Notes under the pieces: generated by a model
Told to the model about the DNA's origin: nothing
The model's input: the letters and a program-made list of their open reading frames with translations, nothing else
Databases searched by the model: none
Position numbers and translations under genes: made by a program
Shown here: positions 1,256-53,789 of the stretch, piece by piece
Layout of the letters: each line of letters begins with the position of its first letter
Numbering within the stretch: position 1 is the first letter of the stretch
Assembly (NCBI GenBank): GCA_049303905.1
Contig: JBAQNP010000020.1
Location: 5,584 to 69,583, forward strand
Origin: Candidatus Moraniibacteriota bacterium
Lineage (GTDB): Bacteria; Patescibacteriota; Minisyncoccia; Moranbacterales; UBA2206
Direction: 5' to 3'
DNA: 64,000 bases

Positions 1256-3154
1256 ATGTCATTACGAGATATTAAGAATAATTTATACAAGAAAGATGCG
1301 CCGGAGAATTTGTCGGAGCATGAGATTAGCAAATACGATCCAGCTGTTGCTAAAGACACCGGAGAGATGAATAAGGGTGAGAGCGATCTTTGGGCAAAAA
1401 AAACAGGACTGGATCAAACCGAAAAAAAAGCCATCAAAAAAGGCGTGATTGCTTTTGCAATTGTTATCGGGATAATTATCGCTTTGGCTATTTTTGCGAT
1501 AGTTCGACAAATTATTTTTCAATCGGGCAATGCCACTATTGAAATTTCTGGCCCTATGCAAGTAAACAGCGGGAAACTTTTGACTTATGAGATAAATTAT
1601 AAAAATGACAATCGACTCACGATAAAAAATGCAGTTTTGCGTATCAATTATCCGGAAAATTTCAAACCGGAAAACAATCCAAATTTCAAGTCTGATAACC
1701 TTACTTCAGGAAGTTTCAATATCGGAACGATCAAGGGTAAAACTCAGGGAAAAATTATTCTAAATGGAAAAGCTTATAGTCCTAAGGGCGCGCTAATTTA
1801 CCTTAAAGCTTCAATGTCGTATAATCCTTCGGGCTATTCCAGTCAATTTCAAACCAATGGACAGTTAGGTGTGAATATTAATTCTGCGCCAATTATTTTG
1901 GAAGTATTGGCTCCTCAAAACGCTTCAAATGGTGATGCAGTTGACTATCAGATAAACTATAAAAACGATGGAGCAGAGGTAATAGAAAATTTGTCAGTTA
2001 AGATAAAATATCCTGATGGGTTCACTTTTTCTTCCGCTAGCCCCAAGACTTCGACGGATAATAATATTTGGAATATTGGAAATATCCCCGCTGGGCATAG
2101 CGGAAAAATAGTTGTGAGTGGAAAACTGGAGGGAGAAAGGGAGAATGTCAAGATGGTTGAGGCAGAAATTGGCGTAATGGAACAAAATGAATTCGTGGCC
2201 TATAACAGTGAAAGCGCTGAAACTAAAATTATTTTTTCTCCATTGACAATTATACAGAGAGTTAACAAAAAAGATAATCTTGTTGTGAATGCGGGAGAGA
2301 CATTGGAATTTGAAGTTGCTTATAAAAACAATGGTAGTGTGGGACTACGCGATGTTATTATCACGGAAAAAATAGATAGCGCACTATTGGATTATTCATC
2401 ACTAAGATTGAAAAATGGAAGTTTTGATACTGACAACAAGACGATTACCTGGAAAGCTTCAGATATAAAAGAGTTAGCCAATTTGGGGGCTAATCAAAGT
2501 GGGATGTTAAATTTTACTATTAAAGTCTCAAATACTTTTCCAGTAGGAGAAGAAAAAGACAAAAATTTTATCATAAAAAGTGTGGCTAAAATTGACAGTC
2601 CAGATGTGCCAACGCCAATTTCTATGAACAAGATAATTTCAAGCAATGAGATTAATATGAAAGTTAACTCAAAAGTGGCGGTGAGTGTCAAGGGATATTA
2701 TGCCGATAAGAGTATTCCAAACTCTGGTCCAATCCCGCCAAAAGTCGGTCAAGAAACAACCTATACAATTCATTGGAAAGCATTGAATATTTCTAATGAT
2801 GTTTCTGGTGCTAAGGTTGTTGCGACTTTGCCAACTAATGCGCAAATGACTGGAAAATTTTTCCCAGAGGGCGCAAATTTGAATTATAATTCCAGAACCA
2901 ATGAAATGGTTTGGACAATTGGGAATATGAAATCTGGCACAGGACTACTTTTTGATTCGCCAGAAGTATCTTTCCAAGTGAAAATAAAACCATCGCCGGA
3001 TCAAGTCGGCAGAGAGGTGGGGCTTCTGGAAAAAACAAACATATTTGCCAAAGATCTTTTTACCGGAGAGGATATCAAAGGAGAATATGAGGCAAAAAAT
3101 ACCAACCTCACAGAAGATAGTTCAATCGTAGGCGGAAATCGGGTAGAGGGTTAG
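1256..3154 (+). CDS. Membrane-anchored surface protein with tandem DUF11/CARDB-like beta-sandwich repeats
   Basis: 632 aa with an N-terminal TM helix (IAFAIVIGIIIALAIFAIV). Repeated blocks (INYKNDN..L.I, INYKNDGAEVIENLSVKIKYPDGF, EFEVAYKNNGSVGLRDVII) match the conserved-repeat-domain pattern. Confidence 0.7.
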   Translation: MSLRDIKNNLYKKDAPENLSEHEISKYDPAVAKDTGEMNKGESDLWAKKTGLDQTEKKAIKKGVIAFAIVIGIIIALAIFAIVRQIIFQSGNATIEISGPMQVNSGKLLTYEINYKNDNRLTIKNAVLRINYPENFKPENNPNFKSDNLTSGSFNIGTIKGKTQGKIILNGKAYSPKGALIYLKASMSYNPSGYSSQFQTNGQLGVNINSAPIILEVLAPQNASNGDAVDYQINYKNDGAEVIENLSVKIKYPDGFTFSSASPKTSTDNNIWNIGNIPAGHSGKIVVSGKLEGERENVKMVEAEIGVMEQNEFVAYNSESAETKIIFSPLTIIQRVNKKDNLVVNAGETLEFEVAYKNNGSVGLRDVIITEKIDSALLDYSSLRLKNGSFDTDNKTITWKASDIKELANLGANQSGMLNFTIKVSNTFPVGEEKDKNFIIKSVAKIDSPDVPTPISMNKIISSNEINMKVNSKVAVSVKGYYADKSIPNSGPIPPKVGQETTYTIHWKALNISNDVSGAKVVATLPTNAQMTGKFFPEGANLNYNSRTNEMVWTIGNMKSGTGLLFDSPEVSFQVKIKPSPDQVGREVGLLEKTNIFAKDLFTGEDIKGEYEAKNTNLTEDSSIVGGNRVEG

Positions 3155-3180
3155 GATGATTTAGTTTCTTTATTTTTCTA

Positions 3181-3245
3181 AATTAACTCACGGTCTAATT
3201 TTCTGGCTAAAAATTTTCCTCAATCGACGGCTGGAGGAAGGGACT
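3181..3245 (+). repeat. Copy 1 of a recurrent hairpin motif (loop core CTCAATCGACGGCTGG) in the tgt 5' region
   Basis: Shares aattaactc...ttctggctaaaaattttcctcaatcgacggctgg with copies at 3297, 4596, 14690 and 60375. Confidence 0.5.
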
Positions 3246-3296
3246 GAAGATTGTTATTAAAAATTAAAAAATAACTCGAAAGCGTATTTTAATAAT

Positions 3297-3340
3297 CAGA
3301 AATTTTCCCTCAATCGACGGCGGATAAGGAAAATTTCTGA
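3297..3340 (+). repeat. Copy 2 of the hairpin motif: 11-bp stem agaaattttcc/ggaaaatttct with 19-nt loop ctcaatcgacggcggataa
   Basis: Perfect inverted repeat around the conserved loop. Itself enclosed by a 19-bp long-range inverted repeat (3246-3265 / 3373-3391). Confidence 0.55.
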
Positions 3341-3414
3341 ATAAAATACACTTTCTCAAACAGGATTTTTTAAATTTTAATAACAATCTTCTTGTAAGTA
3401 TAGATAGAAAAAGT

Positions 3415-4590
3415 ATGTTTGAGATAATTTCAAAAAATCCCGCCTCGACTCGCGGAGACGGTCACTCGTCGATGCGAGGCGGGAGCAATAGTCGAGTTGG
3501 AAAAATTAGACTTAAAAACGGAGAAGTTAACACTCCGTTTTTTATGCCTGATGCGACGCGTGGTTTTGTGCGATCAATTGACAATGAAATTTTAAATTCC
3601 ATAGGTCTCGAAGCGATTCTCATTAACACCTATCATTTGTTTTTAAATCCTGGAATGAAAATAATCAAAGAAGCGGGTGATGCTCATGGCTTTATGAATT
3701 GGTCGCGTCCACTGCTTTCTGATTCGGGTGGATATCAGGTTTTTTCGCTTATTCATAAAAATCCGCGTCTTGGGAAGATTACTGATAATGAGGTGATTTT
3801 TAAATCTCCCCATAGTGGAGAAAAACATATTTTAACACCAGAAATTGCCATTCAAATTCAGTTTGATTTGGGGGTGGACATGATGGTTTGTTTGGATGAT
3901 CCACCACCGAATGATTATTCAAAAGATAAAATTGAAAAAGCAGTTTTGCGGACTATTCGTTGGGCAAAGAGGTGTAAAGATGAATATGAAAAACAAATTC
4001 AAGAAAGAAAAATATCTGAAAAAAATCGACCGTTAATTTTTGGGGTTATTCAGGGCGGGGAATATTTAGATCTTAGAAAACATTGTACCGAGGAACTAGT
4101 GAAAATCGGGTTCGATGGTTATGGTTTTGGAGCGAGACATATCGATGTTGATGGAAATTTCATGGAAGAAGTGGTGCGAGAAACCGCTGGCTTTATCCCA
4201 GAAAATTCATTGCGTTTTGCTTTGGGAGTTGGTACACCGGAGGATATTGTGAAATGTTTTTCATATGGCTGGGATATGTTTGATTGTGTGATTCCTACTA
4301 GAGAAGGGCGACATGGGCGTTTGTTTTTGCGAAAAGGAAAGAGTCTCACTGAATATGAAACAATTAATATTAATAACGGAAAATATAAAAATGATTTTTC
4401 GCGAATTGACGAGAATTGTGATTGTATGTTATGTAAGAATCACACTCGAGCCTATTTGCACCATCTTTTTTCTTCCAAAGAAATGCTTGGGATGAGACTC
4501 TCTGCAATTCATAATTTGAAGTTTTATGTGGATTTACTGGCGTCACTCCGAAATGGCGTAAATTCAAAAAAAATTGAACTCAAACCTTAA
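3415..4590 (+). CDS. tgt: Queuine tRNA-ribosyltransferase
   Basis: 391 aa with the DSGGYQ motif and a C-terminal CDCMLC zinc site. The N-terminus carries a 15-aa insertion encoded by a GC-rich palindrome. Confidence 0.9.
   Translation: MFEIISKNPASTRGDGHSSMRGGSNSRVGKIRLKNGEVNTPFFMPDATRGFVRSIDNEILNSIGLEAILINTYHLFLNPGMKIIKEAGDAHGFMNWSRPLLSDSGGYQVFSLIHKNPRLGKITDNEVIFKSPHSGEKHILTPEIAIQIQFDLGVDMMVCLDDPPPNDYSKDKIEKAVLRTIRWAKRCKDEYEKQIQERKISEKNRPLIFGVIQGGEYLDLRKHCTEELVKIGFDGYGFGARHIDVDGNFMEEVVRETAGFIPENSLRFALGVGTPEDIVKCFSYGWDMFDCVIPTREGRHGRLFLRKGKSLTEYETININNGKYKNDFSRIDENCDCMLCKNHTRAYLHHLFSSKEMLGMRLSAIHNLKFYVDLLASLRNGVNSKKIELKP
3439..3483 (+). repeat. GC-rich palindromic element family 1, 45 nt, in-frame inside tgt (encodes PASTRGDGHSSMRGG)
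   Basis: cccgcctcgactcgcggagacggtcactcgtcgatgcgaggcggg has terminal inverted repeats cccgcctcg/cgaggcggg. It is the reverse-orientation match of the copies at 37026, 29539 and 62138. Confidence 0.75.
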
Positions 4591-21432: not shown

Positions 21433-21606
21433 ATGATGAAAAATTATAGTGATATTTTGGTGGGGCTTTCAGTTTTAGCAGTATTGATTTCTGGTTATGA
21501 TTCTCTTTACCAAACAAATGTTTTGAATTTGGCGGGAACACAATGGATGTTGATTGCTTTGGTTTTGGGCGTGTATGGAATTTACGCTAAAATGCGAATG
21601 AACTAA
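21433..21606 (+). CDS. Small hydrophobic protein (57 aa), not in the ORF track
   Basis: ATG 11 nt downstream of ggaggtg. MMKNYSDILVGLSVLAVLISGYDSLYQTNVLNLAGTQWMLIALVLGVYGIYAKMRMN has two predicted TM segments. Confidence 0.45.
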   Translation: MMKNYSDILVGLSVLAVLISGYDSLYQTNVLNLAGTQWMLIALVLGVYGIYAKMRMN

Positions 21607-21659: not shown

Positions 21660-22370
21660 ATGCATATGAAAAATAAGATTGCTGTTTTTGATATTGACGG
21701 AACAATCTTTAGAAAAAACTTAGCTTTTGAACTGATCAATGAATTAGCTTGGATGAAAGTTTTTAGGCGTGAAGTGCGCAATGAGTTGGTGCAACTTTAT
21801 ACAAAATGGCTAGATCATCATGGCACATATGAAGAATATAGAAAGGCTTTGGTCAAGCTTTATGTAGAAAACATTAAAGGTTGTACGCGAGAGCAGATAA
21901 TAGAAGCTAGCAAAATTGTGGTGCCTTTTTTCAAGGATCGTACCTATATTTTTGCCAATAATTTAATAACAGAACTAAAAAAGAAAGGTTATCATCTCAT
22001 TGCCGTTTCTGGTTCGCCAATTGAAATTGTGGAAGAATATAACAAACACTTGAAGTTTGACGCAGTTTTCGGCACGGTTTATGAGCTTGATGACAAGGGT
22101 CTCTATACAGGCAAAGAAGCTTTTGCGCCAACAGCGCATAAGGGTCATGTTGTTCGTCAATATGCAACTGAAAATAAACTTACCCTAGAAGATTCCTATG
22201 GCGTGGGCGATACAGAATCAGATGCGAAATTTTTGGAAATAGTGGATAACCCCATTGCATTTAATCCTAATTTGAATTTGAAAAATATCGCAGAGGAACA
22301 TGGTTGGCGAATCGTGGTTGAGAAAAAAGATGTGATTTATGATATTACCAGTTGCGCAAAAATAATTTAA
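21660..22370 (+). CDS. HAD-IB family hydrolase (SerB-like fold)
   Basis: 236 aa with AVFDIDGTI motif I, the GDTESD motif and a capping domain. Confidence 0.8.
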   Translation: MHMKNKIAVFDIDGTIFRKNLAFELINELAWMKVFRREVRNELVQLYTKWLDHHGTYEEYRKALVKLYVENIKGCTREQIIEASKIVVPFFKDRTYIFANNLITELKKKGYHLIAVSGSPIEIVEEYNKHLKFDAVFGTVYELDDKGLYTGKEAFAPTAHKGHVVRQYATENKLTLEDSYGVGDTESDAKFLEIVDNPIAFNPNLNLKNIAEEHGWRIVVEKKDVIYDITSCAKII

Positions 22371-26371: not shown

Positions 26372-27724
26372 ATGAAATTCGCATTGTTCGTATCGCTTAT
26401 GCGTATTGCAATTTTTACTAATAACTATTTACCTAATCCCTATGGCGTGACGCGGTCGATTGAAACATTTCGACGCGAGATGGAAAAACAGGGGAATGAG
26501 GTCTTTATTTTTGCTCCGTACTGGAAAAATTATAAGGATGTCAATAAAAATGTTTTTCGTTTTCCTTCATTTGATATTGAAATTAAATTTCGCTTTCCTT
26601 TGGCGATTCCATATTCCTGGAAAATTGATAAGATAATAAAGAATCTTGATCTGGATGTGATTCATGCTCAGCATCCCAATCTTCTTGGAAGCGTGGCAAT
26701 GAAATGGGCGAAGAGGAAAAAGATTCCCTTGATTTTTACTTGGCACACTCTTTATGATCAATATACTAATTTTGTGCCGTTTGTCCCAGCAAAAATTTCG
26801 GCCGGATATATTATCAAAAAAGCGGTTAAATTTGCTAACTTGGCGGACGCCGTAATTGTGCCGACAGATTCAATCATTCCAATTATTCGAAAATGGGGGG
26901 TGAAAAATTGTCATCCTGAATTTACCTTGCCTACCGGCAGGCAGGTTTCAGGATCTAAAAAAGAGATGCTGAAACAAGTTCAGCATGACAGAATATATGC
27001 TATCCCGACAGGAGTTCTTGAGGAAGAATTTGAAAATCCTGATAGAAATAAAATAAGAAAAAAATATAATATAAAAGATGATGAAACTGTTCTGTTTATG
27101 GTTTCCCGATTAACTGCGGAAAAAAATGTTGAATTTATTTTTCGATCAATTAAGAATATTCTAGCGGACAGTCCGCTAGAGGGCGGACTGTCCGCGCTTA
27201 ATGTTAAATTTCTAGTTGTAGGAGATGGGTATCTCAGGAATAATTTAGAAGAATATTGCCGACGGGAAAATATTTCAGAAAAAATAATTTTTTGCGGAGA
27301 AGTAGAAAGGCAAGAAATTAAAAATTATTTTGCTTCTGCGGATATTTTTGTCTATGGCTCAAAATCAGAAACGCAAGGAATGATAATCACCGAGGCGATG
27401 TATATGGGGCTCCCAATCGTGGCAGTTTCGGCGACCGGGATAAATAGTTTAGTTTTGAATAATGGCAATGGATTTTTAGTAGAAGAAAATTCACCCTGTG
27501 GAATACCGCTACGCGGTAGCGACAAAGTCGCTATTCCACAGGGCGAGAAAGAATTTGAAAAAGCAGTTTTTAAATTGATTAACGACAAAGATTTACGAAA
27601 AAAATTTGGCGAAACTTCCGCGCGTATCGCTAGAATTAATTTCACCTCTTCGATTTGCGCCGAGAAAATTTTGAAAGTTTATAATAACCTTATTGAAAGT
27701 AAAAAAAGACATTATTCTAGATGA
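26372..27724 (+). CDS. Glycosyltransferase family 4 (GT-B, group 1)
   Basis: The C-terminal domain has GSKSETQGMIITEAMYMGLPIVA (the EX7E region). The true start is probably MRIAIF at 26399, because the first 9 codons lie inside a gcgaat-repeat array. The CDS holds three different palindromic insertions (26909-26990, 27160-27196, 27493-27545). Confidence 0.8.
   Translation: MKFALFVSLMRIAIFTNNYLPNPYGVTRSIETFRREMEKQGNEVFIFAPYWKNYKDVNKNVFRFPSFDIEIKFRFPLAIPYSWKIDKIIKNLDLDVIHAQHPNLLGSVAMKWAKRKKIPLIFTWHTLYDQYTNFVPFVPAKISAGYIIKKAVKFANLADAVIVPTDSIIPIIRKWGVKNCHPEFTLPTGRQVSGSKKEMLKQVQHDRIYAIPTGVLEEEFENPDRNKIRKKYNIKDDETVLFMVSRLTAEKNVEFIFRSIKNILADSPLEGGLSALNVKFLVVGDGYLRNNLEEYCRRENISEKIIFCGEVERQEIKNYFASADIFVYGSKSETQGMIITEAMYMGLPIVAVSATGINSLVLNNGNGFLVEENSPCGIPLRGSDKVAIPQGEKEFEKAVFKLINDKDLRKKFGETSARIARINFTSSICAEKILKVYNNLIESKKRHYSR
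26909..26990 (+). repeat. Double-hairpin element family 2 copy, in-frame inside the GT4 gene (encodes CHPEFTLPTGRQVSGSKKEMLKQVQHD)
   Basis: tgtcatcctgaattt...ttcaggatc...gagatgctgaaacaagttcagcatgaca. The same element is intergenic at 31308, 40896 and 53703. This copy also carries an inner ccggcaggcagg palindrome. Confidence 0.7.
27160..27196 (+). repeat. GC-rich perfect 13-bp hairpin (gcggacagtccgc-tagagg-gcggactgtccgc) in-frame in the GT4 gene
   Basis: Seen directly. Encodes LADSPLEGGLSAL. Confidence 0.6.
27493..27545 (+). repeat. Composite palindrome ccctgtggaata...tattccacaggg (family 5) in-frame in the GT4 gene
   Basis: 12-bp terminal inverted repeats enclose two inner palindromes (gctacgcggtagc, agcgacaaagtcgct). 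The same terminal repeat bounds a 94-nt region upstream of glmS. Confidence 0.6.
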
Positions 27725-31299: not shown

Positions 31300-31307
31300 C
31301 ACGCAAG

Positions 31308-31371
31308 TGTCATCCTGAATTTATTTCAGGATCTAAACAATAGAGATGCTGAAAGCAAGTTCAGCATGACA
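31308..31371 (+). repeat. Double-hairpin element family 2 copy (intergenic, between the nif3-like and M16 genes)
   Basis: tgtcatcctgaatttatttcaggatc...gagatgctgaaagcaagttcagcatgaca. Confidence 0.7.
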
Positions 31372-31376
31372 ATATT

Positions 31377-38301: not shown

Positions 38302-38616
38302 GTGGCTCCTAAAAAGAAAGTTTTTTATTTAAATATGGAAAAAGAAAAAAACAATTCGAAGGCGCCTTGGTGGCAGCCGGGTTTATTGCTTTTTTATCGG
38401 CTTTCTGGTTGGATTGCGGGACCGATAATTCTGGCAATTTTTGTCGGCAGATGGCTAGATAAGAAATATCAAACTGAACCTTGGCTTTTTCTTCTCTCTG
38501 TTGGCATTGCCTTTATCATTTCAACAATAGGCATAACTAAAGATGCAATGCGTGAACTAAAAAGAATAGAAAACGAAGATAAAAAAGAAGCGCAGGATAA
38601 AATAGCAAAAAAATAG
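38302..38616 (+). CDS. Small membrane protein directly upstream of atpB (AtpI/AtpZ-like)
   Basis: 104 aa with two TM helices. The position is conserved in F-ATPase operons. Confidence 0.5.
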   Translation: MAPKKKVFYLNMEKEKNNSKAPWWQPGLLLFYRLSGWIAGPIILAIFVGRWLDKKYQTEPWLFLLSVGIAFIISTIGITKDAMRELKRIENEDKKEAQDKIAKK

Positions 38617-38619
38617 CAT

Positions 38620-39471
38620 ATGGCAGAACACGAAATACAAACGAATAGTCATGAGTCTAATCAGGAATTTTCCCACGAAGCAACTTTGTTTGCTGAGCCG
38701 ATTTTTCATTTCGGTAGTTTTACTGTCACCAACTCTTTGATTATGAGTTGGATAACAGTTCTAATTCTGGTCGCTTTTTTTGTTATGACTGGAAAGAAAA
38801 TTAAAAAAATTCCAAAAGGTTTGCAGAATGTTTTTGAAATTTTACTCGAGAAGGCTTTGGAATTGGGCGACAGTATCACGGGAGAAAGAAAAAGAACAGA
38901 AAAGTTCCTGCCAATCTCAATGGCTCTTTTTTTGTTTATACTGGTGAATAATTGGCTCGGGCTTTTGCCGGGTGTGGGAACAATCGGATTTAATGAAGTT
39001 GACGGCGCGCATAGAGTTTTTGTGCCGATTCTTCGTGGTGGAACAGCTGACATCAACACCACCTTGGCACTGGCACTTTTTGCAGTAGTGGCTTCACATG
39101 TTATGGGAGTACTTGCGATTGGTGTTTGGAGTCATTTGAATAAATTTATAAATATAGAAGCATTTTTGGAAATTCCGAGTAAGATAAAAAAAGATGTAAC
39201 CATTGTCTTAGTCAATCCAATCAAAGCCTTTGTGGGAATAGTGGAAGTGATTGGAGAAATTGCCAAGGTAGCCTCGCTCACCTTCCGGCTTTTTGGGAAT
39301 ATTTTTGCTGGGGAAGTGCTGTTGGCTTCGATGATGGCGCTGTTTGCCTATTTTCTGCCACTACCATTTATGTTTTTGGAAATGATTGTAGGGATAATTC
39401 AGGCGCTCATATTTGCAATACTCACCATGGTTTTTATGACAATAGCTACCGAAAAACATGCTGAGCATTAA
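38620..39471 (+). CDS. atpB: ATP synthase F0 subunit a
   Basis: LTFRLFGNIFAGEVLL (the essential Arg region). Confidence 0.9.
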   Translation: MAEHEIQTNSHESNQEFSHEATLFAEPIFHFGSFTVTNSLIMSWITVLILVAFFVMTGKKIKKIPKGLQNVFEILLEKALELGDSITGERKRTEKFLPISMALFLFILVNNWLGLLPGVGTIGFNEVDGAHRVFVPILRGGTADINTTLALALFAVVASHVMGVLAIGVWSHLNKFINIEAFLEIPSKIKKDVTIVLVNPIKAFVGIVEVIGEIAKVASLTFRLFGNIFAGEVLLASMMALFAYFLPLPFMFLEMIVGIIQALIFAILTMVFMTIATEKHAEH

Positions 39472-39549
39472 TTTATAGTTAATTAATTTTTTAAATTTTA
39501 TTTTTCAAGCGACTTTAAAAACATAAAAACAAGTCGACTTCAAAAGTAG

Positions 39550-39774
<225 letters not shown>

Positions 39775-39932
39775 TTTCAGATGCTCCATCTAACGAGGTG
39801 GGGCAAAATGAGATTGTTAAAAATTCCAAGATACAAGAAACAAGAAACAAACAAATCACAATTTTAAAAATTCAATAATCAAACAGTGTTAATTTGTAAG
39901 TTGATTATTGAAAATTATTTGTATCTTGTAGC

Positions 39933-40445
39933 TTGTTTCTTGATTATTATAATTTTATGGATGAACTAATAAAAACATTTCACATTGAAGTTAACTTACT
40001 CTTAGCGCAGATGGTCAATTTTGTCATCGTGCTTTTGGTGCTGTATAAATTTGCCTACAAACCGATTTTGAAAACATTAAATGACAGGACGAAAAAAATT
40101 GAAAAAGGTTTGAAAGATAGTGCTGATGCTTCACAAAAATTGGAGGAAATAACTGAAAAAGAAAAAGAAGTTTTACTAAACGCCAAAAAAGAAGCCCAAG
40201 AAATTATCAAAAAATCTGAAAATGAAGCTAGGAAAAATGCTGAAAACATCACGACCGAAATGAAAGAAAAAAATGCCAAAATGCTTGAAGACGCCAAGGC
40301 AATGATTGAAGAAGAGAAAAAGAAAATGCTTTCTGAGATAAAATCAGAAGTGGCTGATCTTGTGGTGATGGCGACGGAAAAAGTGATTGCGGAGAAATTA
40401 GATTTAAATAAGGACAAAGAAATAATTGAAAAAGCGATAAAATAA
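39933..40445 (+). CDS. atpF: ATP synthase F0 subunit b
   Basis: N-terminal TM followed by a long charged coiled-coil. Confidence 0.8.
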   Translation: MFLDYYNFMDELIKTFHIEVNLLLAQMVNFVIVLLVLYKFAYKPILKTLNDRTKKIEKGLKDSADASQKLEEITEKEKEVLLNAKKEAQEIIKKSENEARKNAENITTEMKEKNAKMLEDAKAMIEEEKKKMLSEIKSEVADLVVMATEKVIAEKLDLNKDKEIIEKAIK

Positions 40446-40847
40446 ATGAAAATCACAGCCACGCAATACGCGAAAAGTTTATATGAAGTGACACGGGAAA
40501 AATCTCAAAACGAGATTGGTGTTGTGATAGAAAATTTTGTGAAAATTTTGACGAAAAATAGGCAAACTAAATTGGTTGTGAAAATTATCAAGAAATTTGA
40601 AGAGTTATATAACAGAGAAAGTGGTATTGCGGAAGTGGAAATAATAACAAGATACAAGATACAAGATACAAGATACAAACAAATTGAGGAATTTATTAAG
40701 AAGAAATACGGGGCGAAAGAAGTTGTGATTGAAAATAAAATTGACGAAAGCATCAAGGGTGGAATAATTTTGAAAATCGGCGATGAAATTTTGGACGCGA
40801 GCGTGGAGAGACAGTTAGTAGAGTTGAAGAAAAGTCTGAACCACTGA
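40446..40847 (+). CDS. atpH: ATP synthase F1 subunit delta (OSCP)
   Basis: Position and size fit. Start overlaps the atpF stop. Contains an (AAGATAC)x4 tandem heptamer encoding TRYKIQDTRYK. Confidence 0.7.
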   Translation: MKITATQYAKSLYEVTREKSQNEIGVVIENFVKILTKNRQTKLVVKIIKKFEELYNRESGIAEVEIITRYKIQDTRYKQIEEFIKKKYGAKEVVIENKIDESIKGGIILKIGDEILDASVERQLVELKKSLNH

Positions 40848-40895
40848 TTATCACGTGAGCTCACATGATTTCACTGAATTAAAAATAGAAAAAAT

Positions 40896-40964
40896 TGTCA
40901 TCCTGAACTTGTTTCAGGATCTCCGAAACTAAGTACGAGATTCCGAAACAAGTTCGGAATGACA
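40896..40964 (+). repeat. Double-hairpin element family 2 copy (variant) downstream of atpH
   Basis: tgtcatcctgaacttgtttcaggatc...gattccgaaacaagttcggaatgaca. Hairpin B arms have changed (ccgaa instead of gctgaa) but the inverted repeat is preserved. Confidence 0.65.
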
Positions 40965-41063
40965 TAATAGAGATAGAAGTTCTTTGGAAAATTAAAAATA
41001 AAAAAGCCACGTCATCCTAATAATACAGGAATCAGTGGCTTTCGGCTGGCGAGGCGACGATAA

Positions 41064-41279
41064 TTAAGGGGCTGTCTTGATGGCTTGGGCAAGTTCCTCG
41101 TATGTTTTGTACATACTTGGCACCATATTAACCAAGGTCATTGCCCAGCCACCATCAGATATGCAGTTCTCAAGAGAGTGTCCATTGGTTTTCACGAAAT
41201 TTATTTTCTCTTTGGGCGTGCAACCCGCTTCTTTCATTGCCTTTTCGTATGCTTGCAATTTTTCTGCTAAACTGTCCAT
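41064..41279 (-). CDS. Small protein (71 aa) encoded antisense within the atpH-atpA spacer
   Basis: Strong SD aaggaggtg 7 nt upstream of the ATG (MDSLAEKLQAYEKAMKEAGCTPKE...). Its own rho-independent terminator lies downstream (hairpin gccacgtcatcct...aggaatcagtggc + T-run at 41000-41050 on -). No family recognised. Confidence 0.55.
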   Translation of the reverse strand: MDSLAEKLQAYEKAMKEAGCTPKEKINFVKTNGHSLENCISDGGWAMTLVNMVPSMYKTYEELAQAIKTAP

Positions 41280-41475
41280 ATTCTTCACCTCCTTTATAAA
41301 AAAGTTTTAAGGTTATTGAGATGATTACATTGAATCAAATCGTATAAATATAGTATGAAATTAATAAAAAGTCAAATTTTTACTAACATACGAATCTTTC
41401 TAAAATACTAATTCGTACTTTCGCTAGATTCGTACTTTCGTAAATTATAATCTAACTAAAATTTATAAAAACATT

Positions 41476-43014
41476 ATGAGCAAAGACTACATCATCGAAC
41501 AACTAAAAAAGCAAATTGAAAATTTTGAGACTAAAACTCAGACTGAAAAAGTCGGAACCGTATTGGAAGTTGGGGACGGCGTGGCGAAAGTTTCCAGCCT
41601 CTCTGACGTGATGGCTTCGGAGATGTTGGAATTCTTGCCTCGCCAAAGTGAAGCGAAGGCGGGTTCTAATGGAATTTATGGCGTGGCGCTCAACTTGGAA
41701 GAAGGCCAAATCGGAGCCATGATTTTGGGTGAATTTTCTGGTATCAAAGAAGGTGATCAAGTCAAATCAACGGGAAAAATTTTGTCGATTCCAGTGGGGG
41801 AGAATATGATTGGCCGAGTAATCAATCCGCTTGGACAAGCGATTGATGGCAAAGGCGAAATCGTCTCCGAAAAATTCTATCCAATTGAAAAAATTGCTCC
41901 GGGAGTTATCACTCGTCAATCCGTCAATCAACCGGTGCAAACAGGAATTAAAGCGATTGATGCAATGATCCCAGTGGGGCGAGGTCAAAGAGAGCTTATC
42001 ATTGGCGACCGCCAAACTGGAAAAACTGCCATTGCGATTGATGCCATCATCAATCAGAAAGGTCAAAACATGAAATGCATCTATGTCGCCATTGGACAAA
42101 AAGAATCCAAGATTGCTCGAATTGTAGCAGAACTTGAAAAGAAAGGGGCGATGGAATATACCACGATTGTTTTGGCGGGTGCATCTGATCCAGCTGCTTT
42201 TTCTTTTATCGCTCCCTATTCTGGTTGCGCGCTGGGAGAATATTTTATGGATAAAGGTGAAGATGTTTTGGTGATTTACGATGATCTTTCCAAACACGCT
42301 TGGGCTTATCGCCAAATTTCTTTAATTCTCAAGCGTCCACCAGGGCGTGAAGCTTATCCGGGAGATGTTTTCTATTTGCATTCTCGACTTTTGGAGAGAA
42401 GTGCAAAACTTAACAAGGATTTCGGTAGTGGATCAATCACAGCCTTGCCGATCATTGAAACGCAAGCAGGTGATGTGTCAGCTTACATTCCAACTAATGT
42501 TATCTCAATTACTGACGGACAAATTTATTTGGAATCGGATCTTTTCTACAAAGGAATTCGTCCAGCCTTGAACGTGGGACTTTCTGTGTCTCGCGTGGGA
42601 TCAGCAGCGCAAACTAAGGCGATGAAAAAAGTGGCCGGAAAACTTCGTTTGGACTTGGCTCAATTTCGAGAATTGGAAGCTTTTGCACAATTTGGATCTG
42701 ATTTGGATGAAAACACTCGTCGTCAAATCGAACGGGGACGAAGAACAGTGGAAATTTTAAAACAAGATCAATACGCACCGATGCTAATGGAAAACCAAGT
42801 CGCGATTCTTTATGCTCTCACTAATGGATTCATAGATGATGTAGCAGTAGAAAAAATTCGAACATGGGAAACTGATTTTCAAAAATATCTAAATTCTAGC
42901 GCGAAAGAAGTGTTGACTCTGATTGCCGAAAAGAAAGAATTGACGGAAGACGTGATTGAAAAATTAGAAAAAGCGATCAAAGATTTTAAGGATATATATC
43001 AAAACGGGGTATAA
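41476..43014 (+). CDS. atpA: ATP synthase F1 subunit alpha
   Basis: GDRQTGKT Walker A, 512 aa. Confidence 0.95.
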
Positions 43015-43108
43015 TCTTTACTAATTACGAATCAAGTACGAACATAACTAATAAAAAAATTCGTAATTCGTATATTAGTAAATAATTAGTAATTCGTAAA
43101 GAAAAGCT

Positions 43109-44068
43109 ATGGCTTCAGGTAAAGAAATTAAAAGACGAATAAAATCCATTCAGAACACCGGAAAAATTACTCGGGCAATGGAAATGGTGAGTGCGGCTAA
43201 AATGCGCCGAGCTATTTCAAGTGTGCTCGCAATCAGACCATATGCTCATAGCGCTTGGAGTGTGCTTACGAATTTAGCGCGTTCATTTAGGGAGAAGCAA
43301 GACGGTTTATTAGCTGTGCGTGAAGTGAGGAGTGTTTTGGCAATCGCAATCACATCGAACCGCGGACTTTGCGGATCATTCAATTCTCAATTGACAAAAA
43401 AAATCAGAGAGGAATTGGCGAGTCCGAAAAATTTGAAAATAAATCGAATCGGTAACAAAAAAATAGAATCAAAAATCACTGATGAAGAATTGAAAATCGA
43501 TTTTATTACTGTCGGTAGAAAAGGTGAGAATGTTGTGAAGAGAACCGGCAAGGAAATCATCGCCTCATTTAATGATTTGACCTATTTGCCAAAATTTGAA
43601 GCCGTGCGAGCAGTAGGAAAGGTCGTAATTGATGATTATTTGGGCAAAAAATATGACAAGGTAGTTATTTTCTATACTGATTATGTTTCCGCTATCAAGC
43701 AAGAAACAAAAGTGCGCCAAATTTTGCCACTTTCAAAGATTGATTTGGAAAAACAATTAGCTGAAATGGATGTTTTGGCGGAAGAATACGGACTTAAAAA
43801 GCCAAAATCTGAATATAAAGTTGAGCCGAGTCCGGAGGAAGTTTTGGATCATATTATCCCGCGTCTCATTGAAATGCAGATCTATCATGCAATTTTGGAA
43901 TCGAATGCTTCCAAAGAATCCGCCCGAATGGTTGCTATGAGAAATGCCACCGATGCTGCCAAAGAAATGGCCGATGATTTCACTCTGGCCTATAATCAAA
44001 TTAGACAGATGAAAATTACTCAAGAGATAGCGGAGATTAGTGCGGGGATGGCGGCATTAGAACAATGA
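43109..44068 (+). CDS. atpG: ATP synthase F1 subunit gamma
   Basis: IKRRIKSIQNTGKITRAMEMVSAAKMRRA N-terminus and C-terminal helix. Confidence 0.9.
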   Translation: MASGKEIKRRIKSIQNTGKITRAMEMVSAAKMRRAISSVLAIRPYAHSAWSVLTNLARSFREKQDGLLAVREVRSVLAIAITSNRGLCGSFNSQLTKKIREELASPKNLKINRIGNKKIESKITDEELKIDFITVGRKGENVVKRTGKEIIASFNDLTYLPKFEAVRAVGKVVIDDYLGKKYDKVVIFYTDYVSAIKQETKVRQILPLSKIDLEKQLAEMDVLAEEYGLKKPKSEYKVEPSPEEVLDHIIPRLIEMQIYHAILESNASKESARMVAMRNATDAAKEMADDFTLAYNQIRQMKITQEIAEISAGMAALEQ

Positions 44069-44244
44069 CCAATAACCAAGATACAATAACCAAAAAAATT
44101 CCAATACTCAAAATCCAAATTGGTAATTGTATCTTGTGTCCTTGGTGATTGCGAAGACTGTTCTTTGGAAAATTTAAAATAAAAAAGCCATCAAATCTAG
44201 AAGTAGATGATGACTTTAAGTTTAAATTACCGCCTTTTGGTGAT

Positions 44245-44397
44245 TTAGTGGGATGAGTTATTAATGACTGCGCCCGCAATATAACTTACAGCTATGATAA
44301 TAGGCGCTGCTATACCCACAACATAGTAGCCTATCCAGCCAACAACGCAGGATAGAATAACGAAGACTAGTCGTTCCCCAGGTCTCAATGTTTGCAT
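44245..44397 (-). CDS. Small hydrophobic protein (50 aa) antisense within the atpG-atpD spacer
   Basis: SD ggaggta 6 nt upstream of ATG. MQTLRPGERLVFVILSCVVGWIGYYVVGIAAPIIIAVSYIAGAVINNSSH, checked codon by codon. Not in the ORF track. Preferred over the overlapping low-complexity 44037-44279 ORF. Confidence 0.5.
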   Translation of the reverse strand: MQTLRPGERLVFVILSCVVGWIGYYVVGIAAPIIIAVSYIAGAVINNSSH

Positions 44398-44640
44398 ATG
44401 TACCTCCTTTTAAGGTTAAAAAATACGTTGATTTTCACTAACCTAATATTATACTCCAAATCAACTAAAAAGTCAACCCTTAAATCCTAATCAGTGAATA
44501 ATTGGCTAAAATAAAGCAAAGAATAACTTTTTTACGAATTACGAATTTTATACGAATATACTAATAATATTTTTTTAAAGATTAGTATATTAGTAAAGAG
44601 ATTAGTAATTAGTAAAGACATAACTTAAAATTAATTCTAA

Positions 44641-46080
<1,440 letters not shown>

Positions 46081-53695: not shown

Positions 53696-53702
53696 ATATT
53701 CT

Positions 53703-53775
53703 TGTCATCCTGAATTTATTTCAGGATCTTCTAAGGGCGCTTAATTGAGATGCTGAAAACAAGTTCAGTATGACA
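53703..53775 (+). repeat. Double-hairpin element family 2 copy, immediately downstream of glmS
   Basis: tgtcatcctgaatttatttcaggatc...gagatgctgaaaacaagttcagtatgaca. Confidence 0.7.
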
Positions 53776-53789
53776 GACCTTTTAATTTT

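Follow-up and report, generated by a model that had tools for sequence, protein, structure and literature searches.

Antisense small genes with conserved flanks and changing coding content in two spacers of a Candidatus Moraniibacteriota ATP synthase operon

Results

Two long atp spacers each contain a complete antisense unit

The DNA considered here, referred to as the window, is a 64,000-nucleotide (nt) stretch of Candidatus Moraniibacteriota contig JBAQNP010000020.1. It carries a plus-strand ATP synthase (atp) operon in which the spacers between atpH and atpA (H-A) and between atpG and atpD (G-D) are abnormally long (Table 1). A complete small gene unit lies on the minus strand of each, which confirms the observation in the initial annotation that antisense small genes interrupt this operon. 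The lengths reported there for the two spacers also agree with the gene coordinates, whereas the remaining atp spacers, put at 0-90 nt, in fact measure 0-158 nt, the longest being that between atpE and atpF (158 nt with a TTG start).

Both long spacers are built in the same order. Starting from the upstream atp gene, each contains a long hairpin, a tail motif, a terminator, an open reading frame (ORF), a Shine-Dalgarno sequence, a promoter and an AU-rich hairpin made of repeated words, after which the next atp gene begins. The H-A unit encodes a predicted soluble protein of 71 amino acids (aa), ORF71, and the G-D unit a 50-aa hydrophobic protein of membrane type, ORF50 (GRAVY 1.14, with transmembrane-like segments). 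The GC skew flips over both ORFs, as coding on the minus strand predicts. The two putative promoters resemble each other in their -35 element and spacer; they are the best (G-D, 11/12) and joint second-best (H-A, 10/12, tied with two other sites) in a scan of 9 kb, in which the total number of matches was not above chance. On the plus strand of the window the sequence CCTCCTT occurs only twice, and both copies are the Shine-Dalgarno sites of these units. The near-consensus sites had been recognized from the outset, although with coordinates a few nt off, and the terminator then assigned to the first unit has a counterpart in the second. The family-2 element, the inverted repeat and the TACGAAT arrays described for these spacers are likewise all present.

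Compared with shuffled controls, the leaders of the predicted transcripts show no excess of structure (z scores of +1.4, -0.2, +0.1 and +0.7), and the Shine-Dalgarno sequences are exposed. From the promoters it is about 100 nt to the start of atpA and about 175 nt to that of atpD, and both promoters point away from these genes. At the other end, transcription is predicted to stop at positions 40991 and 44173, leaving 144 nt to the stop codon of atpH and 105 nt to that of atpG. Because the units have their own terminators and AU-rich hairpins flank them on both sides, the antisense transcripts should not overlap atp coding regions.

The units are absent from the nearest relatives and patchily distributed

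We compared the window with 80 atp loci from GTDB species representatives, designated here by L numbers. The nearest of these, L001 (AtpA 94% identical), is collinear with the window over 34.4-46.6 kb at 82-86% nucleotide identity, yet its H-A and G-D spacers measure only 30 and 60 nt and contain neither unit; the same is true of L002, with spacers of 30 and 32 nt. The question whether relatives have short spacers at these junctions is thus answered positively for both genomes. The atpA-atpG spacer (43015-43108) is likewise enlarged, to 94 nt from 15 nt in L001; the added sequence is a TACGAAT/ATTAGTA word hairpin throughout and has no ORF.

Elsewhere among the relatives long spacers recur. 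The G-D spacer exceeds 300 nt in 10 of the ~21 closest loci (L001-L023, mostly Patescibacteria), compared with 2 of ~40 more distant and mostly non-Patescibacteria loci, and the H-A spacer reaches 860-1070 nt in L003, L004 and L005. The long spacers of L003, L004, L005, L007 and L008 contain small antisense ORFs, each provided with a G-rich ribosome-binding site and a terminator. However, a tblastn search with ORF71 and ORF50 found no match in the 80 atp loci or in phage genomes. The small ORFs are therefore not conserved, and unrelated ORFs take their place in relatives. The atp operons of L004, L005 and L023 also hold selfish genes on the sense strand, belonging to the families GIY-YIG (PF01541), PDDEXK_3 (PF13366) and 23S_rRNA_IVP (PF05635).

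Conserved flanks enclose a changing payload

When the window spacers were compared by BLAST with the loci of the relatives, the flanks of the units proved to be shared and the ORFs did not. The flank that we call P1 consists of the predicted promoter and the first ~25 nt of the leader, with the consensus TTGACW-N17-TAYAAT-N5-GTTAGTRAAAATCAACGWATTT; in an alignment of six slots, as we term the sites of these units, from five lineages, the -35, the -10 and the 25-nt leader are invariant. At the opposite end lies T1, a 31-nt motif composed of the terminator 3' arm, the U-tract and AATTTTCCAAAGAAC. Its only copies in the window are those of the two units (40979 and 44160, with none expected), and it occurs again in L003 at H-A (after an 89-aa ORF) and at G-D (after a 22-aa hydrophobic ORF), and in L083/L085 at G-D. 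A second tail type, T2, is found at H-A in L004 and L005 and in both slots of L086.

L004 and L005 both have P1 at H-A, together with unrelated ORFs, one of 80 aa and soluble, the other of 97 aa and membrane-type; the flanks of these two spacers align at 94% and 77%, whereas the ORF segment does not align. L086 has a second, slightly diverged copy of P1 at H-A, so that the module stands at both junctions in this genome. A scan of 241 million metagenome records with the exact 29-nt P1 pattern returned four matches, each of which lies antisense at the H-A or G-D junction of an atp operon. Neither this pattern nor the T1 31-mer occurs in viral contigs.

Replacement of the payload between these flanks can be followed directly in L085, whose AtpA (~96% identical over the part available) and AtpD (91%) are close to those of the window. 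The nucleotide alignment covers atpG and ends at 44190; it starts again at 44415 and extends across the remaining spacer and atpD. Identity is 83% in the tail and 89% in the promoter-leader, against ~83% in the flanking atp genes, and falls to 23% in the payload, where ORF50 is replaced in L085 by a protein of 105 aa that has a transmembrane segment at its N terminus. By these breakpoints, the exchanged unit comprises the Shine-Dalgarno sequence, the ORF and the terminator stem. Every slot has an ORF with a Shine-Dalgarno-like motif 4-9 nt ahead of its start and a terminator right behind its end. No homologous pair was found among the payloads compared, and 12 payload ORFs from relatives matched no Pfam, PADLOC or PHROGs family significantly. 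Hydrophobic payloads make up five of seven at G-D, and soluble ones four of five at H-A, in what is a small sample.

Four slots share a conserved hairpin block of ~55 nt (TCGAAATTCTTGCTCTGTTTATGGCTCAAGA.GCCAC.GA.AGAGGAGGA) immediately upstream of the antisense promoter. It matches nothing in Rfam, and no ORF is found in it consistently.

The H-A junction is a breakpoint in a mosaic operon

In L083, which is of the same species as L085, atpA, atpG and atpD share ~83% nucleotide identity with the window, whereas AtpB and AtpE (reverse strand 1371-3900, compared with window 38302-40847) are only 30% and 49% identical. Both are closest to another Patescibacteria lineage, represented by L011 and L017 (61% and 77% to L011). 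Because this F0 segment is foreign and homology to the window restarts 34 nt upstream of atpA, the comparison demonstrates that the H-A junction served as a recombination breakpoint in the mosaic operon of L083. The L083 operon also has an additional atpZ-like gene between atpF and atpH.

ORF71 belongs to a very rare family, and ORF50 has no relatives

ORF71 is identical to the NCBI hypothetical protein WA055_03000, from a Candidatus Moraniibacteriota metagenome-assembled genome (Parcubacteria, Candidate Phyla Radiation). In a HMMER search of 1.84 billion representative proteins it has only two true homologues, P0005 (73 aa; 40% identity and E 3e-15 by BLASTP) and P0004 (92 aa), which share the motif GGW..L..MVP..Y....EL..AI. 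The further candidates P0002, P0003 and P0006 were rejected as long repeat proteins with repeat-inflated scores, and a profile search for the family found no members beyond P0004 and P0005. When 5.8 billion proteins were searched through a word index, ORF71 retrieved only its own sequence and ORF50 retrieved nothing. No family of Pfam, PHROGs or PADLOC matches ORF71, and the five-helix bundle modelled for it by AF2 (pLDDT 84) has no structural neighbour at a significant level. To judge from these sequence relationships, ORF71 is a real but very rare orphan protein family. The gene for P0005 stands alone after mutS in an unrelated metagenomic contig (L081 440-730), where it has its own terminator, an AGGAGG site and a promoter of consensus sequence (TTGACA-17-TATAAT), and for this reason the family appears to travel as an autonomous unit. 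ORF50 is absent from the protein collection searched, had no homologue in any search, and matched no Pfam, PHROGs or PADLOC family.

Shine-Dalgarno sites, hairpins and dispersed repeats in the window

None of the ~55 large genes of the window has a convincing Shine-Dalgarno sequence upstream. Perfect sites precede three small ORFs: ORF71, ORF50 and a 56-aa membrane ORF on the plus strand (21433-21606), which has two hydrophobic segments and a GGAGGTG site and lies in sense orientation between 21395 and 21660. In this genome, Shine-Dalgarno sites seem to be reserved for small ORFs. The anti-Shine-Dalgarno motif has been reported missing from about half of Parcubacteria 16S rRNAs (PMC9297842); the 16S gene of this genome lies outside the window.

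In every longer atp spacer, the word arrays (TACGAAT, ATTAGTA and CAAGATACAA) pair as the two arms of an AU-rich hairpin. TACGAA shows a strong preference for intergenic DNA, with 27 of its 41 copies in the non-coding 12% of the window, and it clusters upstream of genes at 21660, 26372, 41476, 43109, 44650, 54333 and 62237, as well as beside the tmRNA. At the place of the G-D hairpin upstream of atpD, L085 has a stronger hairpin built of different words (TACAAAAGT), so that the structure appears to be kept while its sequence turns over.

The family-2 palindromic element (GTCATCCTGAAC...GTTCGGAATGAC; ~75 nt, dG -34) is a dispersed repeat of short spacers between co-directional genes, with four copies in the window, one of which (at 26903) falls within a long ORF (26372-27724). 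It also occurs in atp junctions of relatives, and its stem variants (CCTGAA/TTCAGG, TCCGAA/TTCGGA, GCTGAA/TTCAGC) keep pairing. Rfam gave no match within the spacers of the window and nine related loci.

Table 1. Features of the atp region and related sites. Positions are those of the window unless a locus is named; features on the minus strand are predictions.
Feature	Position	Strand	Remarks
atpZ/I-like gene	starts 38302	+	first of the window's atp genes
atpB	starts 38620	+	
atpE	starts 39562	+	
Word-array hairpin	39826-39929		
atpF	starts 39933	+	
atpH	40446-40847	+	
H-A spacer	40848-41475		628 nt
Family-2 element	40896-40964	+	long hairpin directly 3' of atpH; dG -34.1, z -8.2; as a repeat copy, 40890-40966
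T1 copy 1	40979-41009	-	TGGCTTTTTTATTTTWAATTTTCCAAAGAAC on minus strand
ORF71 terminator hairpin	41002-41043	-	then UUUUUUAUUUU; U-tract 40991-41001
ORF71	41064-41279	-	71 aa from ATG; soluble
ORF71 Shine-Dalgarno	41286-41294	-	AAGGAGGTG (reverse complement); 6 nt before ATG at 41279
ORF71 promoter, sigma-70-type	41375-41347	-	TTGACT-17-TATATT; score 10/12
AU-rich word hairpin	41379-41444	+	TACGAAT/ATTCGTA; just upstream of atpA; z -4.65
atpA	41476-43014	+	
Word-array hairpin	43017-43082		
atpG	43109-44068	+	
G-D spacer	44069-44649		581 nt
Word hairpin	44069-44145	+	CAAGATACAA words; directly 3' of atpG; dG -22.1, z -4.85
T1 copy 2	44160-44190	-	left boundary of exchangeable payload
ORF50 terminator hairpin	44184-44217	-	z -2.95; then UUUUUUAUUUU; U-tract 44173-44183
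ORF50	44245-44397	-	50 aa; hydrophobic, membrane-type
ORF50 Shine-Dalgarno	44402-44409	-	AAGGAGGT (reverse complement); 4 nt before ATG at 44397
P1 promoter-leader block	44413-44515	-	right boundary of payload
ORF50 promoter, sigma-70-type	44476-44448	-	TTGACT-17-TATAAT; score 11/12; then leader GTTAGTGAAAATCAACGTATTTTTTAAC
AU-rich word hairpin	44529-44618	+	TACGAAT/TACTAAT and ATTAGTA; upstream of atpD; z -3.27
atpD	44650-46080	+	
atpC	starts 46139	+	
Other family-2 copies, window	26903-26995; 31302-31376; 53697-53777		
Family-2 copies, atp junctions of relatives	L004 4540-4634, 5069-5201, 5779-5818, 9088-9185; L015 7557-7632, 8618-8684		
~55-nt hairpin block	L004 5700-5760; L005 5650-5710; L086 1225-1290, 4850-4910		
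Selfish-gene insertions	L004 8796-9092, 10878-11306; L005 4090-4440, 11388-11816; L023 2639-3031	sense	
P1 scan matches	L083/L085 at G-D; L084 (= L005) at H-A; L086 at G-D	antisense	

Discussion

The anatomy of the two spacers has implications for what the antisense genes might do. They were at first proposed to modulate the stoichiometry of F1 subunits through antisense transcription across the atp junctions. Such a role finds no support: the payloads lack conservation, and the transcripts, which have terminators of their own, should end before atp coding sequence; moreover, L001 and L002 lack the cassettes altogether. Instead, we think it fairly probable that ORF71 and ORF50 are strain-specific accessory genes occupying conserved, insulated slots. 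The insulated layout, the absence from L001 and L002 and the turnover of payloads together lead us to view them as exchangeable genes in a conserved setting.

We suggest that a clade of Candidatus Moraniibacteriota possesses an antisense expression slot of which the window holds two copies, directly upstream of atpA and of atpD. On the minus strand, a sigma-70-type promoter would drive a conserved, unstructured AU-rich leader, followed by the payload (a strong Shine-Dalgarno sequence, a small ORF and a terminator stem) and then by the conserved U-tract and tail, with AU-rich hairpins flanking the slot at both sides. The flanks may have been passed on by inheritance or by copying from one of the two junctions to the other, whereas unrelated small ORFs, of which about half encode membrane peptides, would take turns as payload. 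Such replacement most likely proceeds by homologous recombination, for which the conserved flanks and the highly conserved atpA and atpD next to them would serve as substrates; judging from the breakpoints, the payloads were probably swapped in this way.

Several considerations weigh against this account of an exchangeable slot. The patchy distribution of the cassettes, present in the window, L003-L005 and L086 and missing from L001 and L002, demands several losses or several transfers, and the ~6-8 lineages involved were nearly all reached via atp genes. Our P1 scan demanded the exact pattern, and diverged copies outside atp operons would escape it. The conservation of P1 could also reflect a role in the transcription of atpD or atpA, since a plus-strand TTGATT-16-TATACT overlaps the block. 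Promoter, terminator and translation are all predictions from sequence, the coding status of ORF50 is drawn from its context without a homologue, and the exchange mechanism is deduced, so that a site-specific or transposon-like route would be possible too.

We considered whether the units might be non-autonomous mobile elements, with conserved ends (P1 together with T1 or T2) and variable cargo, inserted site-specifically beside hairpins at atp junctions; the flanks would then be the ends of an element rather than regulatory DNA of the host. The mixing of end types across junctions and genomes would fit such an element: P1 is combined with T1 in the window and L085, and with T2 in L004, L005 and L086. 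So would the attraction of the same atp junctions in relatives for the selfish genes noted above. Variable content between highly conserved genes is also typical of integration hotspots flanked by core genes and of small selfish genes in Patescibacteria operons. In contrast to those selfish genes, however, ORF71 and ORF50 match none of the three families and lie antisense, with a conserved promoter flank on one side and a conserved terminator flank on the other. We saw neither terminal inverted repeats nor a target-site duplication or recombinase, there were no matches in viral contigs or phage genomes, and from P1 onwards the homology between the window and L085 is unbroken across the remaining spacer and atpD, as expected of orthologous DNA. 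We therefore regard a mobile element as unlikely.

A second possibility is that the antisense units are cis regulators, in which convergent or antisense transcription at H-A and G-D sets the level of the atpA/atpG and atpD/atpC messages relative to upstream genes and the ORFs are secondary. A cis effect on atp expression is possible because the promoter-leader and tail are conserved, so far in atp operons only; the promoter-leader, known to date from only these two atp junctions, is better conserved than adjoining coding DNA. In addition, the cassette hairpins lack a good U-tract on the plus strand, and atp transcripts reading through them could collide with antisense transcription. On the other hand, no overlap with atp coding or initiation regions is predicted, which also led us to reject an overlap of the excludon type. 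The conserved flanks are found in L003, L004, L005, L083/L085 and L086, while the closest relatives manage without. Each slot has an ORF with a ribosome-binding site, needless for a device acting purely at the RNA level. A purely regulatory role thus strikes us as quite unlikely.

The hydrophobic payloads call to mind type I toxin-antitoxin systems such as hok/sok, tisB/istR and aapA/isoA, in which short hydrophobic peptides with strong ribosome-binding sites are encoded opposite another transcript. Here, membrane toxins would be neutralized at the mRNA level by complementary atp read-through. ORF50 and several payloads of relatives are indeed short (22-98 aa), very hydrophobic, equipped with strong ribosome-binding sites and antisense to a highly transcribed operon. 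However, about half of the payloads are soluble; ORF50 fits the description of a hydrophobic peptide of less than ~60 aa, but ORF71 does not. No payload matched a known toxin family. In contrast to typical type I toxin mRNAs, whose leaders mask the ribosome-binding site, the leaders here lack structure and leave the Shine-Dalgarno sequence accessible, and a structured toxin leader was rejected on this ground. No promoter for a dedicated antisense small RNA was identified; no separate plus-strand promoter-terminator unit is seen over the ORFs, and only atp read-through could supply the antisense RNA. We hold this interpretation to be very improbable.

A bidirectional promoter is possible because the overlapping plus-strand sequence shares its -10 region with the minus-strand promoter, although the plus-strand -10 lacks its key A (TGTACT) in two of six copies while the minus-strand -10 is intact in all six. 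It is hardly credible, however, that the ORFs are incidental and the conserved element is a (possibly bidirectional) promoter of atpA and atpD as separate transcription units amid junk DNA: the hairpins in every atp spacer do suggest segmented transcripts, but besides the degraded plus-strand -10, every slot has its ORF between a Shine-Dalgarno-like motif and a terminator, ORF71 has real homologues, and the GC skew reverses over both ORFs. The atp 'operon' itself probably consists of several transcription units.

Returning to accessory genes in a conserved slot, three kinds of known system offer points of comparison. Phage morons stand between two genes of an operon as self-contained units of promoter, ORF and terminator. 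The atp units resemble them in having their own promoter, ribosome-binding site and terminator, in lying between operon genes where the nearest relative has nothing, and in encoding small orphan ORFs. They differ in that the host locus is the chromosomal ATP synthase operon rather than a prophage, with no counterpart in the viral contigs and phage genomes searched, and in that the ORF varies between regulatory flanks that are themselves conserved, an arrangement that to our knowledge has not been described for morons. With integron cassettes and other gene-capture platforms the units share a conserved expression platform and interchangeable small ORFs. Integron cassettes, however, are promoterless ORFs with an attC site, whereas these have their own promoters. 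No attC-type site is common to the payload boundaries, and the adjoining hairpins are unrelated (the family-2 element in one case, the hairpin of CAAGATACAA words in the other). There is one payload per slot, the slots are 3 kb apart and form no array, and homologous recombination is the likelier mechanism. An integron was rejected on account of the promoters and the lack of attC; no integrase gene was noted in the window, which was not scanned for one. Finally, small, often membrane proteins linked to atp genes include AtpI and AtpZ, and other small ATP-synthase-associated proteins are the cyanobacterial AtpTheta and the alphaproteobacterial zeta subunit. These proteins are conserved families encoded in sense or at separate loci, whereas the ORFs described here are mutually unrelated and missing from close relatives. 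We found no account of antisense cassettes in Patescibacteria atp operons in the literature.

Candidate Phyla Radiation bacteria have tiny genomes with few recognizable mobile elements, and how they exchange strain-specific functions is poorly understood. We tentatively raise the possibility that a clade of Patescibacteria maintains dedicated, integrase-free gene-capture slots in its ATP synthase operon, beside atpA and atpD as the most conserved genes of the genome, in which strain-specific small proteins, often membrane peptides, are swapped by homologous recombination and expressed in a manner coupled to transcription of the operon. If so, the slots would provide a compact exchange route for strain-specific functions, nested in an essential and conserved operon, and the perfect Shine-Dalgarno sequences of the payloads would mark a separate translation regime amid genes that lack them. 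That housekeeping genes do without Shine-Dalgarno sites while the payloads have perfect ones is relevant to translation initiation in these organisms. For annotation, the long atp spacers here are not empty, and the slots, if real, would be a ready source of uncharacterized small (membrane) proteins.

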